In this document: positions 7,620-64,000 of the stretch, one piece after another
How positions within the stretch are numbered: position 1 is the first letter of the stretch
Layout of the letters: each line of letters opens with the position of its first letter
NCBI GenBank assembly: GCA_964548205.1
Contig: CAZJPJ010000001.1
Location: forward strand, 60,086-124,085
Length of the DNA stretch: 64,000 nucleotides
Source: an uncultured Candidatus Saccharibacteria bacterium
GTDB lineage: Bacteria > Patescibacteriota > Minisyncoccia > Phycocordibacterales > WO2-35-19
Reading direction: 5' to 3'
Translations under genes and position numbers: made by a program
The notes under the pieces: model-generated
Database searches by the model: none
Told to the model about the DNA's origin: nothing
Seen by the model: the letters and a program-made list of their open reading frames with translations, nothing else

Positions 7620-8777
7620 TTATAGCACCTTCTCTACCACTCCTCCTCCGAGGCATCTTTCGCCAGAATAAAATACCACTGATTGACCGCTTGCGAGGTC
7701 GCTCGCCTCGCTCTCGAACACGACGGTATCACCCGACAAGGTGCAAGGTATTTTATTCTGGCGATACCTGTATCTACATTCTATCTTTTTGTTCTCAATA
7801 TCTTTATCAAGCAGATTTATTTTTTCTAGTCTCGCAGAGTAATTTCCCAAAAAAAGTCCTCGGTTCTCCTCACTTGCTTCATGCGAGCTCGGAGTGACTT
7901 TCTTTTGAAAATTACTCTGCTCGCTGACTGTGATAGTATTTTTTTTGATATCTTTGTCTACTACATACATTGGAGTGCTCTGAGTATTTTTGTTTTCAAT
8001 CCGAAATCCGTGTCTTTCTCCTAGCGTGTAAAGTATTGCTCCATCGTGATCACCTATCACTTCCCCATCAGTGTTCAAAACTTGTCCTTTCTTGGGATTC
8101 AAATAATCCTTCAAAAATTCTTTCATATCGATCTGGCCTAGGAAACATAGGCCCTGACTATCTTTGCGAGTAGCTTGGGGTAAGCCAAACTTTGCTGCTA
8201 GTTTGCGCACTTCTTCTTTTTGTAAATGACCGATAGGAAAAAGAATATGGGAGAGTTGGTTTTGTGTGAGTGTCCAGAGGAAGTATGATTGGTCTTTGTT
8301 CTTATCTTTACTTTCCCATAATTCATAATTCATACTTCGTGATTCTGCACGAAGTGCATAGTGCCCCGTAGCTACGAAGTCAGCGCCATTCTCTAGTGCC
8401 CACTTCAAAAAGTGGCCGAACTTGATAGCCTTGTTGCACATGACGTCCGGATTTGGTGTCCGACCCGCTTTGTATTCGTCGAGCATGTAGTCGACCACTT
8501 CTTGTTTGTATTCCTTCTCTAGATCGAGTGACTTAAATGGTATGTCTAAGGTTGCCGCGGCGCGCATAGCGCTACGCCTGTCTTCTCTCCACGTGCATGT
8601 GTACCCAGGAGGATTCCACGCCTTTATAAAAACTCCTGTCACGTCAAAGCCCTCTTTCTTCAAAAGTGCCGCGCTGACTGCGCTATCTACTCCGCCCGAG
8701 AGTCCGACGAAAACCTTTTTAGCTTTTAGCTTCTGGCTTTTAGCTTCTAGGGTATTGATTACGGGTTGACTTTTCAT
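7620..8777 (-). CDS. mnmA: tRNA-specific 2-thiouridylase MnmA
   Basis: PP-loop SGGVDSAVSA plus the conserved C...C catalytic region and C-terminal barrel. Full length at 385 aa. Confidence 0.9.
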   Translation of the reverse strand: MKSQPVINTLEAKSQKLKAKKVFVGLSGGVDSAVSAALLKKEGFDVTGVFIKAWNPPGYTCTWREDRRSAMRAAATLDIPFKSLDLEKEYKQEVVDYMLDEYKAGRTPNPDVMCNKAIKFGHFLKWALENGADFVATGHYALRAESRSMNYELWESKDKNKDQSYFLWTLTQNQLSHILFPIGHLQKEEVRKLAAKFGLPQATRKDSQGLCFLGQIDMKEFLKDYLNPKKGQVLNTDGEVIGDHDGAILYTLGERHGFRIENKNTQSTPMYVVDKDIKKNTITVSEQSNFQKKVTPSSHEASEENRGLFLGNYSARLEKINLLDKDIENKKIECRYRYRQNKIPCTLSGDTVVFESEASDLASGQSVVFYSGERCLGGGVVEKVL

Positions 8778-12962: not shown

Positions 12963-15900
12963 TTAAGCCACTATATTTAGGAGCTTGTTTGGGACAAAGA
13001 TAACTTTTTTTATATCCCTGTCCCCTATCCACTTTTGGATTTCGGGCAGAGATAGAGCTTTTTCTTTTGCTGTACTTTCGTCGATATTTGCTTCTGCTTC
13101 GAAGCTGGCTCTAACTTTGCTGTTGACTTGTACGACGATAGTTACTTTTTCTTCTTTGATTTTATTTTCATCATACTCTGGCCACTTTTCTAAATGTATG
13201 GACGTCTTATTTCCTATGTCGGATTTATCCCGCGAAGCCTCGGCGAAGTGGGACCAAAGCTCTTCTGTGATATGAGGGGCAAAGGGGCCTAAAATTTTTA
13301 AGAATTTTTCAAAATCTTCTCTTTCAACTTGCGTCTTTCCACTTTCCAACTCATTTACATATATCATCATTGCTGATATGGCAGTATTGAATTTGTAGTT
13401 TTCTATATCCTCAGTAACTTTCTTGATAGTTTTGTGAAGCAAGGTTTCAAGTTTGGTGTTTTTTTCATCAGAGTTTATTTGTGATTTAGAGTTTGGTTCT
13501 TGTAAATTGATTCCAATTCTCCACACTCTCTCCAAAAACCTCCTAACTCCTGCTATGCCTCCAAGGTCCCAAGGGTATTGCCCCACTTCGTTGTATGGAC
13601 CTATGAAAGCAAGATAAAGTCTGACTGTATCTGCTCCTACTTTTGAAACCCATTCATCCGGATCGATGACATTGCCTTTGCTCTTACTCATCTTTTGCCC
13701 ATCTGGTCCGAGTATCAAGCCTCTGTTCATCCTGATTTTGTATGGCTCGCTTTCTTGTACCAAACCCATGTCGAAAAGGGCTTTGTGGAAAAATCTTGAA
13801 TAAAGCAAGTGCATAGTAGTATGCTCGGCTCCGCCTGAGTATCTATCTACAGGCATCCAAGATTTGATTTTGTTTTCTATTTCTCTATTTTCAAATTGTT
13901 TGGAAATCGGAGCTTGAGACTTGAGATTTTCGCGTATGCAATAAGCGAGAAAATACCAAGACGAGTCGACAAACGTATCCATAGTATCGAGTTCGGGTTT
14001 CCAACCTTTACCAAATATTTTTTCAGTTTTTTCTACCAACTCTTTCGAGCTACCAAGTGGTGAAGTCCCCTTAGGTAAAAAGTCTATATTGTCCTCTGGT
14101 AAGAGCCAAGGCAGATGCTCTTCTGGTATCGGGTGTGGCTGGCCTTCTGTATCATAGACCATAGGTATAGGGCAGCCCCAATATCTCTGTCTGCTTAGTA
14201 ACCAGTCTCTCAGTTTGTATTTGGTCACTTTTTGTCCGTACTTTTCTGCGATTTTATCTCGGGCTTGTACTGACGTCATTCTTGTAAATTCTTTGGAATC
14301 AAACAGCACCCCTTCTTCTACAAAAGCTTTTTCTTCAGAATTTAGATTTTCCAAAATCAGAGACATCTCGCTATGAGTCATGTCCTTCTGTTTTATACCT
14401 GTCAGATCTCTCCATTCCAATTCATGTATTTCTGATTCTTCGGCTGAAAGTTCGTCTTGTTCTTCGTCTGTTAGTTCAAAAAGTAAGTTTCTTGTGTGAG
14501 CGATCCTGTTTACATCCTTATGAGCGGCAAAAAATTCAGATTGTGCAATACCGAGTTTTTTTACAAATCTAAAATTTTTGTAACCGGTCTCTTCTTTTAT
14601 TTCTCTCTCAGCCGCTTCTATTTCTGTTTCGCCTTCTTCTATGCCCCCCATCACAAAGGTGACCCAAGGATGCTTTTTCCATTTCAAACACAAGTATTTG
14701 TCAGTTTTTGGATTTCTCACTACCACTATCACTGCATCCCTAAAGATAGTTTCCTTGCCTTCTCTGTGAGGGTTCCTTGGGTCGGGCATTTTTTGGATAA
14801 CCACGCTTTTTGTTGGTAAGTTGTATTTCTTTGCAAAAGTAAAATCACGCTCATCGTGGGCTGGTACGGCCATGACAGCTCCAGTGCCGTAGTTGCCTAG
14901 GACATAATCTGCTACCCATACTGGCAACTCTTCTCCTGTGGCAGGGTGGATGGCCTTGATACCCTTTAGTTCCACTCCAGTCTTTTGCTTTTTGGCATCA
15001 GTTCTTTCTATTTCTGTTTTACTTTTTGTCTCGTTTAAATAATTTTGGATTTCTTGCTTATTTGTAATTTGCGATTTGGAATTTGTGATTTCTTGTTGCA
15101 GCCATTCATTTTCTGGCGCAATCACAATATATGTAACTCCAAAGAGAGTATCGGCTCGTGTTGTGAAGACCTTGACTTCCCCCTGAAAGCTAGAAGCTAG
15201 AAGCTTAAAGCTAATTTCTGCTCCGCTACTTTTCCCTATCCAATTTCTCTGGGTGTCTTTGATCGGTTCAGGCCAGTCTAGGTTTTCCAAGTCGGAAAGA
15301 AGCCTCTCGGCATAATCAGTGATTTTGAAAAACCATTGCTCCAGATCTTTTTGGACCACTTCGCTTCCGCACCTTTCGCACTCACCACTTACCACCTGTT
15401 CGTTTGCAAGTACAGTCTGATCATTCGGGCACCAGTTGACCTTGGCTTTCTTTTTATAAACCAGACCTCTTTTATAAAACTCCAAGAAGAGCCATTGGGT
15501 CCACCGGTAATATTCTGGATCAGAAGTGACAACTTTGCGTGACCAGTCGAAGGAGTTGCCCATGCTCATGAGCTGCTTCTCCATATGAGCAATGTTTTCG
15601 TAAGTCCATTTTTTAGGATCGATGTTTCTCTTTATGGCGGCATTTTCTGCTGGTAGGCCGAACGCGTCGAAACCTATGGGGAATAAGACATTGTGCCCCT
15701 GCATCCTTTTTGCTCGTGCAAAAATATCTGGCACTGCAAAGGCGTACCAGTGGCCTATGTGCAAATTGCCGGATGGGTATGGGAATTCTACAAGAGTATA
15801 AAAATTGTCCCTACCCTTCACTTCATCAGCGACTTCGTAAAGATTGTTTTTTTTCCAGATTTCTTGCCACTTCGCTTCTATCGTTCTATGATCATAAATT

Positions 15901-15980
15901 TCTTTTGCTTGCCCGTCCGAAGCTTTAGCGGAGGCGGGCCACTTCCCCTCTATCTCTTTGTGATCATAATTTTTTTCCAT
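12963..15980 (-). CDS. leuS: leucine--tRNA ligase with an inserted NUDIX-box domain
   Basis: HIGH motif (NLHIGHWYAF), editing-domain motif TTRADTLFGVT, KMSKS motif (QKMSKSKGNVIDP), and 1005 aa in total. Residues around 395-550 carry the NUDIX box GGIEEGETEIEAAEREIKEETGY. Confidence 0.9.
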   Translation of the reverse strand: MEKNYDHKEIEGKWPASAKASDGQAKEIYDHRTIEAKWQEIWKKNNLYEVADEVKGRDNFYTLVEFPYPSGNLHIGHWYAFAVPDIFARAKRMQGHNVLFPIGFDAFGLPAENAAIKRNIDPKKWTYENIAHMEKQLMSMGNSFDWSRKVVTSDPEYYRWTQWLFLEFYKRGLVYKKKAKVNWCPNDQTVLANEQVVSGECERCGSEVVQKDLEQWFFKITDYAERLLSDLENLDWPEPIKDTQRNWIGKSSGAEISFKLLASSFQGEVKVFTTRADTLFGVTYIVIAPENEWLQQEITNSKSQITNKQEIQNYLNETKSKTEIERTDAKKQKTGVELKGIKAIHPATGEELPVWVADYVLGNYGTGAVMAVPAHDERDFTFAKKYNLPTKSVVIQKMPDPRNPHREGKETIFRDAVIVVVRNPKTDKYLCLKWKKHPWVTFVMGGIEEGETEIEAAEREIKEETGYKNFRFVKKLGIAQSEFFAAHKDVNRIAHTRNLLFELTDEEQDELSAEESEIHELEWRDLTGIKQKDMTHSEMSLILENLNSEEKAFVEEGVLFDSKEFTRMTSVQARDKIAEKYGQKVTKYKLRDWLLSRQRYWGCPIPMVYDTEGQPHPIPEEHLPWLLPEDNIDFLPKGTSPLGSSKELVEKTEKIFGKGWKPELDTMDTFVDSSWYFLAYCIRENLKSQAPISKQFENREIENKIKSWMPVDRYSGGAEHTTMHLLYSRFFHKALFDMGLVQESEPYKIRMNRGLILGPDGQKMSKSKGNVIDPDEWVSKVGADTVRLYLAFIGPYNEVGQYPWDLGGIAGVRRFLERVWRIGINLQEPNSKSQINSDEKNTKLETLLHKTIKKVTEDIENYKFNTAISAMMIYVNELESGKTQVEREDFEKFLKILGPFAPHITEELWSHFAEASRDKSDIGNKTSIHLEKWPEYDENKIKEEKVTIVVQVNSKVRASFEAEANIDESTAKEKALSLPEIQKWIGDRDIKKVIFVPNKLLNIVA

Positions 15981-60437: not shown

Positions 60438-61919
60438 ATGAAAACTGTTTATAATAAAAAAGTATTTGCTGGCGAAAATTCAATGCTTGATTTTGTAAAT
60501 CCAGCAAATTCCATAACTCCCTTAGTCGAGATACATAAGAACATAAACCCATTTTATACAGATGGGGTCAGATTTTACGCAAAGCTGTTGCAGTTTTCCC
60601 CGCTTGCTCAAGTCAAATCAATACCTGCCTACGAGATGCTCATCCAAGCAAATGCACGCAATGAGATCAATGGAAAAGATACCATTATCGAAGCATCATC
60701 TGGGAACACTTCTTACGGCCTTTCCGTGATAAGCAGACTTCTTTCAATAAATAACATAGAAGCCTATGTATCTCACGAAATAAGTGACAAGAAAATTAGC
60801 CTGCTCCGTCTTTTTGGAATCAAAGCAAAAGTATTTGAAGATCCTCTTTGTGCGGACGCTACTGATCCAGAAAGTAGAATATATAAAGCAAGAGACGCCG
60901 GAAAAATAAAAAATATCTATAACCCAGGACAATATTCAAACATAGACAATCCTTCCTCACATTACAAATATACCGCAAAACAAATATGGGAGCAGACGAA
61001 TGGCGAAATTGCTATATTCTGTTGCGGATTAGGAACTAGTGGCACCTTCTCAGGATGTAGCATGTTCTTGAAAGAAAAAAATGAAAAAATACACTGCATT
61101 GCTGGTTTACGAAGTGAAAATAATATGGTCCCCGGGCTTAGAACCGAAAATCAAATGAGAGAAATAGACTTTCCATGGAAGGAATACTTGGACGCATCAA
61201 TAAAAATCAGTTCGATAGATTCATATGCTAACAGTCTTGATCTGATACGCTACGGAATTATTGCTGGACCTAGTTCAGGCTTGGCATTTGCTACCGCAAA
61301 AGAATATATAGGGATCCTAAAAAAAGATAATAAATTGGAAAAACTAAAAAATCAGGAAGGCTATATAAATGTCATCTTTATATGTTGTGATTTTCCCTAT
61401 TTATATTTGAATGAATACTTCCAATACCTCGATCCATCGAGTTTCCCCAATATAGAGAATGAGCAGTTGCTTAGAGAAAGAGGAGAACACAATACTCCTC
61501 AAACGATTCCAACAGTAAAAGAATTATCTTCTCATGAAGTGTTTGATCTTGCATTCAATGAAAGTCCTGAGAAGGTTTGGGGACAAATAAAGCACAAGGA
61601 GAAAATTGAGCTAAAGAAAGATGTTTCGATAATCGATGTTCGTAATGAGAGCGAATATGAAGATCGCCATGTTCCTGAATCAGTACATGTTCCATTTCAT
61701 GATCTGGATACATTCCTACAGAAAAATAAAAAGGAGCTCAGTAAAAATAATGCTGTGATATTCGTATGTAGGCGTGGAAACACCAGCCGTTTGGCGGCGC
61801 ACAAAGCCGAACAACTAGGTATCAAGTCTATCAGCCTCAAGGGCGGTGATGCCGAGTGGAGTAGACTCAATCTTCCACGTATTCGTCCAGAGAAATGTAT
61901 TTTAAGGTTTGATCTATAA
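60438..61919 (+). CDS. PLP-dependent cysteine-synthase-family (Trp-synthase-beta fold) enzyme fused to a C-terminal rhodanese domain
   Basis: N-terminal ITPLVEI...QVKSIPAYEM (PLP Lys), EASSGNTSYGLS and GLGTSGTFSGCSMFLKE (Gly-rich phosphate loop). C-terminal IIDVRNESEYEDRHVPESVHVP...VIFVCRRGNTSRLAA has the rhodanese active-site Cys. Confidence 0.7.
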   Translation: MKTVYNKKVFAGENSMLDFVNPANSITPLVEIHKNINPFYTDGVRFYAKLLQFSPLAQVKSIPAYEMLIQANARNEINGKDTIIEASSGNTSYGLSVISRLLSINNIEAYVSHEISDKKISLLRLFGIKAKVFEDPLCADATDPESRIYKARDAGKIKNIYNPGQYSNIDNPSSHYKYTAKQIWEQTNGEIAIFCCGLGTSGTFSGCSMFLKEKNEKIHCIAGLRSENNMVPGLRTENQMREIDFPWKEYLDASIKISSIDSYANSLDLIRYGIIAGPSSGLAFATAKEYIGILKKDNKLEKLKNQEGYINVIFICCDFPYLYLNEYFQYLDPSSFPNIENEQLLRERGEHNTPQTIPTVKELSSHEVFDLAFNESPEKVWGQIKHKEKIELKKDVSIIDVRNESEYEDRHVPESVHVPFHDLDTFLQKNKKELSKNNAVIFVCRRGNTSRLAAHKAEQLGIKSISLKGGDAEWSRLNLPRIRPEKCILRFDL

Positions 61920-63161: not shown

Positions 63162-63387
63162 ACTCCTCTTATTGCTTTTATAATATCTGTTATTTCTCCG
63201 AGACTCATCTGTTTTTTTGTCTGTCGATAGATACCCGTTATCTTGGTTTGCATAAATCGTCTGTGCCAATTCTTTTATTACGTGATCTCGCGTGTCTTTG
63301 TGATCAGTATTAGATATCAATATATCAAAAGATTGCAAAGCATTTTGTCTGTGTAGGTTTAAGTTATATAAATGCATATTAGGGGAA

Positions 63388-63660
63388 ATGGGGTCAGGAA
63401 ATGGGGTCACAGGAAATGGGGTCAGCCACCTTTTTTCGTGGAAATGGGGTCAGCCACCTTTTTTCGGGGAAATGGAAATGGGGTCAGCCACCTTTTTTCG
63501 GCCTCCCCACATTATGGAGTACTTGTTCAATATCAAATTTCCTAACTATTCTATCAATCCATGTGGAAATGGGGTCAGCCACCTTTTTTCGGCCTCCCCA
63601 CATTATGGAGTACTTGTTCAATATCAAATTTCCTAACTATTCTATCAATCCATGCATCCT
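63388..63660. repeat. nested tandem duplication: about 95-bp unit x2 plus 5 partial copies (13-27 bp) of its GAAATGGGGTCAGCCACCTTTTTTCG end
   Basis: The units duplicate the last roughly 25 codons and stop of the minus-strand transposase-like gene. There are no unique spacers. Confidence 0.8.
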
Positions 63661-64000
63661 TTCCAAAAGGTATGCTCTTTTCTTCAGATTGTTCCAGTCT
63701 TTCCAACTCTTTTATGGTGATAGGATCATTAACCATTCTTAGATAATTCTTTGGCATGTCAGTTGGCCAAACTGAAAGAAACACCTTCTGCTTTTCTGTA
63801 CCGAATTCCCTCCTCCAAAGGCTCGACCACTTCCAGTTTTCTGCTTTCTTAACCAAATTCGCTGTCTTAGCATTCCTCTCTACATACCGGAGTACTGTAA
63901 GGAGGTGTTGGTCTTGTTCGCAGATGAATGATTTGTATCGACCTTGATACAGGTGCCCTTGCCCGACTGTAGCTTTAGCAACATGCCACCGACGGGTATG
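63575..64000 (-). mobile_element. tnpA: HuH Y1 tyrosine transposase (IS200/IS605-RAYT type), C-terminal part; the N-terminus lies beyond the window end
   Basis: Minus-strand frame open from 64000 reads ...GHLYQGRYKSFICEQDQHLLTVLRYVERNAKTANLVKKAENWKWSSLWRR..., matching the Y1-transposase C-terminal signature W/Y-Q-x-R-Y/F...YI-x-x-N-P/A-V-x-A-x-L-V...(D/N)-W-x-W-S-S. It ends ...GRPKKGG at 63575. Confidence 0.55.

Follow-up and report, generated by a model that had tools for sequence, protein, structure and literature searches.

The window analysed here is a 64,000-nt stretch of contig CAZJPJ010000001.1 from an uncultured Candidatus Saccharibacteria bacterium (GenBank assembly GCA_964548205.1). 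Its last nucleotides appear to lie inside a TIRtron of ~0.73 kb, an element in which a single gene for a Y1/HUH single-stranded DNA (ssDNA) nuclease-ligase is placed between two inverted copies of a palindrome. Directly outside the 3′ end of this gene, the end itself is repeated in a tandem series of nested partial copies. Similar arrays, referred to below as stutter arrays, were found at both ends of related elements among 83 loci collected from reference genomes and metagenomes. On balance, we lean towards reading these nested repeats as scars of an enzyme that nicks its own end, permits a short extension, and reseals the strand.

Repeat array at the end of the window

The array occupies positions 63384-63654 and consists, on the plus strand, of seven head-to-tail copies that all start from (T)GGAAATGGGG and measure 13, 15, 27, 29, 5, 91, and 91 nt. 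The outer boundary is common to all seven and the inner boundary is variable. The gene and the units are located as follows:

63575-64000, minus strand: 3′ part of the Y1/HUH (TIRYT-type) gene, 141 codons plus a TGA stop at 63575-63577, running off the window end
63565-63589, plus strand: gene-proximal right terminal inverted repeat GGAAATGGGGTCAGCCACCTTTTTT (outer to inner), complete, containing GGGGTCAG
63564-63654, plus strand: 91-nt unit, reference copy, made up of the right repeat and the last ~25 codons; the genuine 3′ end of the minus-strand gene
63473-63563, plus strand: 91-nt unit, duplicate, 100% identical to the reference copy and outside the gene
63468-63472, plus strand: 5-nt remnant GGAAA, the shortest partial unit
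63439-63467, plus strand: 29-nt unit TGGAAATGGGGTCAGCCACCTTTTTTCGG, a complete repeat
63412-63438, plus strand: 27-nt unit GGAAATGGGGTCAGCCACCTTTTTTCG, a complete repeat
63397-63411, plus strand: 15-nt unit GGAAATGGGGTCACA, outer arm only, a variant ending in CA
63384-63396, plus strand: 13-nt unit GGAAATGGGGTCA, outer arm only; the outermost unit, with unrelated flank from 63383

The region 63473-63654 was reported as a 91-nt unit present twice at 100% identity (Tandem Repeats Finder and a repeat finder). An earlier note on this DNA had described a tandem duplication of the last ~25 codons and stop of the gene as a 95-bp unit, together with five shorter partial copies. The duplication is real and perfect and has the stated content, the measured length being 91 nt, and the five shorter copies are present at 63384-63472 (29, 5, 27, 15, and 13 nt). 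In the sense of the gene, the first 77 nt of the 91-nt unit are coding (~25.7 codons), the TGA stop comes next, and the remaining 11 nt lie past the stop. Its duplication junction is without microhomology (A at 63472 versus G at 63563; C at 63655 versus T at 63473).

Four of the copies carry GGGGTCAG, namely the 27- and 29-nt units and both 91-nt units. Among the five short copies, the full string GAAATGGGGTCAGCCACCTTTTTTCG is found in the 29- and 27-nt units only, and the 13- and 15-nt units end at GGGGTCA. Within 63384-63577, GGAAATGGGGTCA occurs six times and it is found nowhere else in the 64 kb, where 0.04 occurrences would be expected; GGGGTCAGCCACC occurs four times and is confined to the array within the window.

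Two other origins for a repeated gene end were considered and rejected. A displaced attachment site of a tRNA or other RNA gene was ruled out because scans of the whole 64 kb gave no tRNA gene and no Rfam family at the gathering threshold. Displacement of the gene 3′ end by an integrative element was ruled out because the copies abut, with nothing between them, and because mirror arrays occur at the 5′ side.

Encoded protein

The 141-aa open reading frame (ORF) of the window is identical (100%) to residues 84-224 of a 224-aa protein, P0001, which is encoded on an NCBI contig of 163.6 kb. The HUH motif of P0001 is N59-H60-W61-H62 and its tyrosine motif is Y122-V-E-R-N126. The latter is encoded inside the window (RYVERNA), and the former lies past the window end and is visible only in P0001. 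The earlier note had called the gene product a Y1 (HuH) transposase and had allowed for a full-length protein without HUH and tyrosine motifs; P0001 carries both, so this case does not arise. Comparison with the Pfam hidden Markov model Y1_Tnp (PF01797), which the note had suggested as a check, gave 63.8 bits for full-length P0001 (cut-off 23) and 14.8 bits for the 141-aa window fragment alone. The ORF translation also agrees with the C-terminal peptide quoted there. Residues H60, H62, Y122, E124, and N126, as well as a C-terminal G-R-P, are invariant among homologues (40-42 sequences). This G-R-P is located just upstream of the KKGG-type tail and resembles an AT-hook core.

A sequence search of the PDB returned marginal matches only, and a fold search was therefore needed. 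An AlphaFold model of P0001 (predicted local distance difference test score, 87.1) was compared with the PDB using Foldseek. The best match was 4ER8 (E 7.6e-8), an E. coli tyrosine transposase associated with repetitive extragenic palindromes (REPs) and bound to a REP hairpin, and the next matches were the TnpA proteins of ISDra2 and IS608 (E 1e-6 to 1e-4). The identification as a Y1 transposase is thus borne out by both the Pfam score and the best fold match. Scores against the NCBIfam models REP_Tyr_transpos (61.4 bits, cut-off 80) and IS200 (16.6 bits, cut-off 55) were below the cut-offs. The model includes a helical C-terminal extension of ~85 aa, and a Pfam search of this tail gave no helix-turn-helix match.

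Close homologues (60-84% identity) are nearly all from Patescibacteria (Nomura-, Pace-, Taylor-, and Kaiserbacteria), and distant ones from Planctomycetota, Acidobacteria, and Proteobacteria. The best match in a scan of genome representatives had 67% identity.

Terminal inverted repeats and element boundaries

The right repeat is an imperfect palindrome of ~21-25 nt that contains GGGGTCAG. The stop codon of the gene is positioned at its centre, and its inner arm codes for the last residues, K-K-G-G. A stop codon centred in an imperfect palindrome is also found in close relatives (e.g., AAATGGTGGC-TGA-CCCCATTT); more distant subfamilies have it ~10 nt upstream of the right repeat. The window holds the right repeat only. 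In 80+ related loci both repeats are present as reverse complements of each other, the left one being located ~33-49 nt upstream of the ATG and, in many close relatives, followed directly by a conserved extended -10 box (TGATATAAT). At the left ends of L002-L042 (e.g., L033 2963-3000), TGATATAAT is found ~15 nt before the ATG. The repeat there covers the -35 position. Autoregulation by the enzyme is plausible.

Left and right repeat variants switch jointly between subfamilies (GCCACC/GGTGGC, GTCACC/GGTGAC, GGAGCC/GGCTCC, and GACCCC/GGGGTC). The last four to five codons (KKGG, KNGG, KKGD, or KKGS plus TGA; 63575-63592 in the window) therefore covary with a non-coding left repeat 700 nt away. 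Across 34 aligned ends the GGGGWSAS motif (here GGGGTCAG) hardly varies. Covariation is clear for one stem pair (UA 16, AU 11, CG 2), and the repeats of relatives fold well as ssDNA, with z scores of -2 to -4. No intrinsic terminator was found at the right repeat by a consensus scan. For the present copy, the left end is predicted to read GGAAATGGGGTCAGCCACC(A/T)TTT and then TGATAYAAT, ~33 nt upstream of the ATG, and may carry outward partial copies as well.

Stutter arrays at related loci

Arrays of partial copies extend outward from either repeat at many loci. They are mirror-symmetric, with a fixed outer and a variable inner boundary, and their units range from 5 nt to more than 300 nt. At L001 there are 7-8 units per side. 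At L025, the closest relative (84% identity), right-end units of 7, 7, 33, ~150, and ~47 nt reach into the last ~50 codons, and at L032 and L042 the left-end units run across the promoter into codons ~36-75.

Array frequency was determined by counting the outer 9-mer specific to each locus, since a generic count of 9-mers at two or more copies had a background of 11.6% of control windows. At least one extra outer 9-mer was present within 150 nt outward of 22 of the 52 non-redundant ends. These units total 58, or 1.1 per 150 nt; the remainder of these loci has 0.019 per 150 nt (a ~60-fold difference). A 9-mer occurring at least three times was found in 9/45 left and 6/44 right windows versus 5/1189 controls.

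Inner boundaries cluster at GGGGTCA or GGGGTCAG, with a second group at the palindrome end and a long tail from 34 to more than 90 nt. In short-unit arrays, a 12-nt core is invariant and the 1-2 nt between units vary, which points to junctions that were formed independently. Each array copies the variant of its own end; at L001, for example, the left array is built of GAAATGGGG and the right array of GAATTGGGG. Loci L036 and L041 have a common right flank and different stutter content, so stutter units turn over quickly. A nucleotide-exact nick, or a required 3′ base, was considered and abandoned, given that unit starts are ambiguous and that the base preceding them differs between loci. Units that end in ...GGGG(T/A)CAC-A, and not in the native ...TCAG, were observed in four independent loci (window 63397-63411 and the left arrays of L033, L013, and L038) and may reflect specific junction chemistry.

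Arrays also occur beyond the Patescibacteria, including on proteobacterial plasmids. On plasmid pSR-1 of Skermanella rosea (L085), GGAAATGGGGTCAG-A-GGAAATGGGGTCAGAG... and an older, longer unit are located upstream of a homologue with 29% identity. The orthologous plasmid locus of Skermanella sp. TT6 (L088), which likewise adjoins mazEF, has a single copy. The left end on pSR-1 has two units more than that of TT6, which is a lineage-specific gain in cultured isolates. Legionella adelaidensis carries one extra partial unit (ACTCTGGAGGGTCC-ACTCTGGAGGGTCAGGCC...).

Mobility of related elements

Judged by sequence comparison, the elements appear to be mobile. Units of ~725 nt that are 96-97% identical were found in unrelated flanks (L004/L031; L036/L037/L041), and their homology stops 4-6 nt outside GGGG.

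Several individual loci show rearranged copies. A flank common to L051 (1752-3259) and L060 (1-1509) joins the right end in L051 and, reverse-complemented, the left end in L060. The junction coincides with the outer repeat edge, indicating that the element was inverted in place or re-inserted in the opposite orientation. L001 contains an internally deleted mini-element (7773-7956) that retains a left-end unit and the final ~95 nt of the gene and has a right-end stutter array of its own. The full copy is found 1.1 kb upstream, and a 260-aa ORF separates the two. A solo left-type repeat with stutter and no gene was found in L004 (5241-5290), and right-type stutter remnants of a different repeat variant in L026 and L064, ~60-70 nt upstream of the resident left repeat; elements either land side by side or replace each other. 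In one metagenome (L027 1394-3065, L030 173-2381, and L068), two 99%-identical copies are apparently ~1.9 kb apart. The first ~320 nt of their right flank are common and their left flanks and stutters differ, a pattern that suggests flank-carrying duplication or right-end read-through.

Origin of the arrays

In the route that we favour for the nested repeats, the enzyme would nick the inward-reading 5′-GGAAATGGGGTCAG-3′ strand 5-7 nt outside GGGG, and its tyrosine would keep it covalently attached to the 5′ end of the repeat. A host polymerase would then extend the freed 3′-OH of the flank by N nt and so recopy the start of the repeat, with long events reaching the gene. The new 3′-OH would attack the phosphotyrosine bond, and the strand would be resealed. 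Each round would leave N nt duplicated in tandem, the outer boundary being fixed and the inner one variable, and repeated rounds would produce the series 13, 15, 27, 29, 5, and 91 nt. Because each duplication would be added outside the gene, the gene would stay intact. The nicked strand, the exact position of the nick (±2 nt), and the polymerase step are the parts of this route that we infer.

The starting point of the proposal is an anatomy that was observed at both ends across the family, together with catalytic motifs that are intact. On the inward-reading strand (GGAAATGGGGTCAG...), the 5′ end is fixed at every array junction and the 3′ end joined to it is arbitrary. This holds for both element ends, and it is the form of joining that HUH chemistry produces. 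In RAYTs (REP-associated tyrosine transposases), the tyrosine binds the 5′ phosphate and any single-stranded 3′-OH can resolve the link (PMC3479197); Corneloup et al. make use of this resolution of Tyr-5′P by a 3′-OH in their cleavage and strand-transfer assay (PMC8266576). The steps themselves match the model of Ton-Hoang et al. (2012) for amplification of bacterial interspersed mosaic elements (BIMEs; PMC3333891, Fig. 7B), which would be the simplest route to stutter arrays. The earlier note had named end-directed strand transfer at a transposon end as one explanation, and this is the one favoured by the nested, boundary-anchored copies at both ends of homologues.

Several points weigh against this reading. 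No TIRYT biochemistry was found in the literature consulted, and the nicked strand and position are taken from HUH polarity only. The right repeat of the window itself folds poorly as ssDNA (-2.1 kcal/mol, z +0.8), no better than shuffled sequences, and the left end of the present copy is outside the window. Over half of the 52 ends have no array. The outer boundary is ambiguous by 1-2 nt and has no conserved flanking base. Many short units stop exactly at GGGGTCA or GGGGTCAG, which is not predicted if the polymerase stops at random; this preference for ends in TCA(G) may come from another specific cleavage, at the centre of the palindrome, or from favoured 3′ ends.

The most serious rival is self-targeted or abortive transposition, in which whole or 5′-truncated single-stranded copies of an element end are inserted at its own target-like end or, in an alternative form, a second copy in tandem later undergoes deletion that starts at the junction and proceeds inward, so that truncated end fragments are left. 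The ~725-nt units at 96-97% identity in unrelated flanks, the mini-copy of L001 at 1.1 kb from its master copy, the right-type remnants of another variant upstream of the left repeat in L026 and L064, and the inversion of the element relative to the common flank in L051 and L060 all speak for it. The units themselves do not, as they have no conserved flanking target sequence or duplication, and those of 5-15 nt are without the palindrome required for excision. Furthermore, the inner ends conform to no rule of sequence and so give no sign of a second cleavage at a specific site, and arrays copy the adjacent end only and never mix the two ends. We consider this origin unlikely, and enzyme-independent replication slippage or template switching, triggered by the palindrome and by A/T runs, somewhat more so. 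Slippage had also been offered in the earlier note and would accommodate the near-constant short periods of some arrays (14 nt at the right of L001, 7-8 nt at the left of L010), which could expand once seeded, and the palindromic repeats of relatives. It is nevertheless a poor fit to units that differ widely in length within an array and share one boundary, to the 91-nt duplication with zero microhomology, and to spacer nucleotides that vary among otherwise identical units. Arrays are also found on the outer side of each repeat only, in mirror symmetry, and control windows from the same AT-rich genomes rarely carry them.

The partial copies could instead be under selection as iterons or decoys that the protein binds, serving to titrate it or to adjust the adjacent promoter or terminator. 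The left repeat abuts the extended -10 box and covers the -35 position, and the GGGGTCA core is kept in nearly all short units. Yet even close relatives differ in copy number, which runs from 0 to ~10, many units break off within GGGG, and no binding role is plausible for gene-fragment units of 91, ~150, and >300 nt. As the source of the arrays this is improbable; binding would be compatible with nicking and resealing, and may be a secondary consequence of it. An assembly artefact (mis-joined or duplicated reads), or reverse-transcribed and 5′-truncated copies of the mRNA 3′ end, is given very little credence. The source does appear to be metagenome-assembled, but independent assemblies and complete plasmids of cultured isolates share the architecture, which argues against an artefact. 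Retro-copies would resemble the array in their shared 3′ end and 5′ truncation, but the mirror arrays at left ends lie upstream of the promoter, where no transcript template is available. In addition, the 4 kb that adjoin the array within the window contain no visible reverse transcriptase gene, the related-locus flanks not having been screened.

Comparison with known systems

RAYT-like genes with flanking inverted repeats were named TIRtrons, and their enzymes TIRYTs, by Di Nocera et al. (2013; PMC3733652). That study describes repeats that share a GGGGWSAS motif and overlap the gene 3′ end. According to Quentin et al. (2018; PMC6006769), most TIRYTs belong to TnpA-Y1 subclass 2.1, which equals Group 1 of Bertels, and have no REPs nearby. 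The motifs listed for this subclass are NH[VYF]H and Y[IV](E/H)LNP, with a C-terminal helix-turn-helix-like domain (PMC6006769, Table 1). Group 1 is described as the largest and most IS-like group of RAYTs (Bertels et al. 2017; PMC5581495). The present element resembles these in its RAYT-like Y1 gene of ~220-240 aa with a C-terminal extension, in its GGGGWSAS repeats (here GGGGTCAG) with the right repeat overlapping the gene 3′ end, and in its low copy number, patchy distribution, and IS-like traits. It also has full-length homology (27% identity) to a Pseudomonas plasmid protein with NHVH and YIELNP motifs and a GGGGACAG repeat. It differs in that its clade, comprising Patescibacteria and relatives, has NHWH and Y-V-E-R-N-A versus the published NH[VYF]H and Y---NP, and in that the protein tail has no Pfam helix-turn-helix match. 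Because of these motifs, the missing match, and the 27% identity to a protein with canonical motifs, the element was filed as a divergent relative or sister clade of TIRtrons and TIRYTs and not as a typical member. The TIRtron/TIRYT papers report the repeats and 'dimers or clusters' of them; their accessible text makes no mention of nested, end-anchored partial duplications at the gene's own ends.

With REPtrons and their RAYTs the element shares a Y1/HUH gene, flanked in relatives by inverted cognate palindromes, as well as its best structural match (4ER8). In vitro, the RAYT enzyme cuts ssDNA beside a hairpin, and unrelated 3′-OH ends resolve the Tyr-5′P intermediate (PMC3479197, PMC8266576). 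The present palindrome, however, has no GTAG next to it, the REP_Tyr_transpos score is below the cut-off, and no further copy of the motif occurs in the remaining 63 kb, a comparison that covers only 64 kb. BIME arrays are formed of equal-size whole units, whereas the present units are nested truncations that reach into the gene. The REP-like array associated with a RAYT that the earlier note had entertained comes near but is not exact: the repeat is a GGGGWSAS terminal inverted repeat, not a GTAG REP, and is not dispersed in the 64 kb.

Similarity to IS200/IS605 elements (IS608, ISDra2) lies in the Y1/HUH fold, the imperfect-palindrome ends, and the lack of an evident target duplication. Here the tyrosine motif is Y---N, not Y---Q, and the IS200 score is below its cut-off. 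The ends, as seen in relatives, are mutually inverted, in contrast to two hairpins read on one strand, and no conserved tetranucleotide target is found at the left flank.

Rolling-circle systems (IS91/ISCR, Helitrons, and Rep origins) likewise use an HUH nick as a primer and rejoin the held 5′ end to a new 3′ end. Rolling-circle elements are known to produce copies, truncated or extended by read-through, that keep one terminus fixed. Their enzymes, however, are of the Y2 or Rep type with another domain architecture, and their units are much larger; the rounds of synthesis proposed here would span only 5-300 nt and take place at both ends, in mirror image.

Other genes in the window

Three further loci of the window were recorded. 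On the minus strand, 12963-15980 encodes a 1005-aa leucyl-tRNA synthetase with a NUDIX domain (PF00293, 58.9 bits, residues 413-534). The insertion immediately follows the editing domain, which is shortened and matches profile positions 1-146 of 185. The plus-strand segment 16245-18598 has a GC content of 0.53, compared with ~0.42 around it, and is on the strand opposite to its neighbours. Its products are an NfeD-like membrane protein and a 587-aa SPFH/Band_7 flotillin-like protein, and its GC, strand, and gene content make it a candidate for an acquired island. At 60438-61919 on the plus strand, a pyridoxal phosphate-dependent (PALP) enzyme is fused to a C-terminal rhodanese domain in a protein of 493 aa.

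Implications

The element class was already known, though little studied. No earlier description appears to exist of the stutter arrays, of their occurrence at both ends, or of the way they recur from Patescibacteria to plasmids of Proteobacteria. On the reading favoured here, the arrays would provide a read-out, from sequence, of where the enzyme acts, 5-7 nt outside GGGGWSAS. They may also be taken as a sign of activity in the streamlined genomes of Patescibacteria and on proteobacterial plasmids. The behaviour of RAYTs in vitro, where any 3′-OH resolves the covalent intermediate, probably operates in cells as well. The polymerase-assisted model of BIME amplification would gain more specific support from these arrays than from BIME arrays of equal-sized units, because variable units with one fixed boundary are hard to obtain through unequal crossing-over. 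The arrays also open the activity of this enzyme class in vivo to direct testing.

More tentatively, and with appreciably less confidence than in the reading of the individual arrays, they could be a natural in vivo record of promiscuous 3′-OH capture by the RAYT group that is both the largest and the least understood, and nicking, short extension, and resealing could be the general route by which Y1 enzymes generate and amplify tandem copies of their own recognition sequence. If this is true, that route would be the birth step of REP/BIME-like repeat families, and array boundaries could serve for computational mapping of the cleavage sites of thousands of family members that are still uncharacterised.

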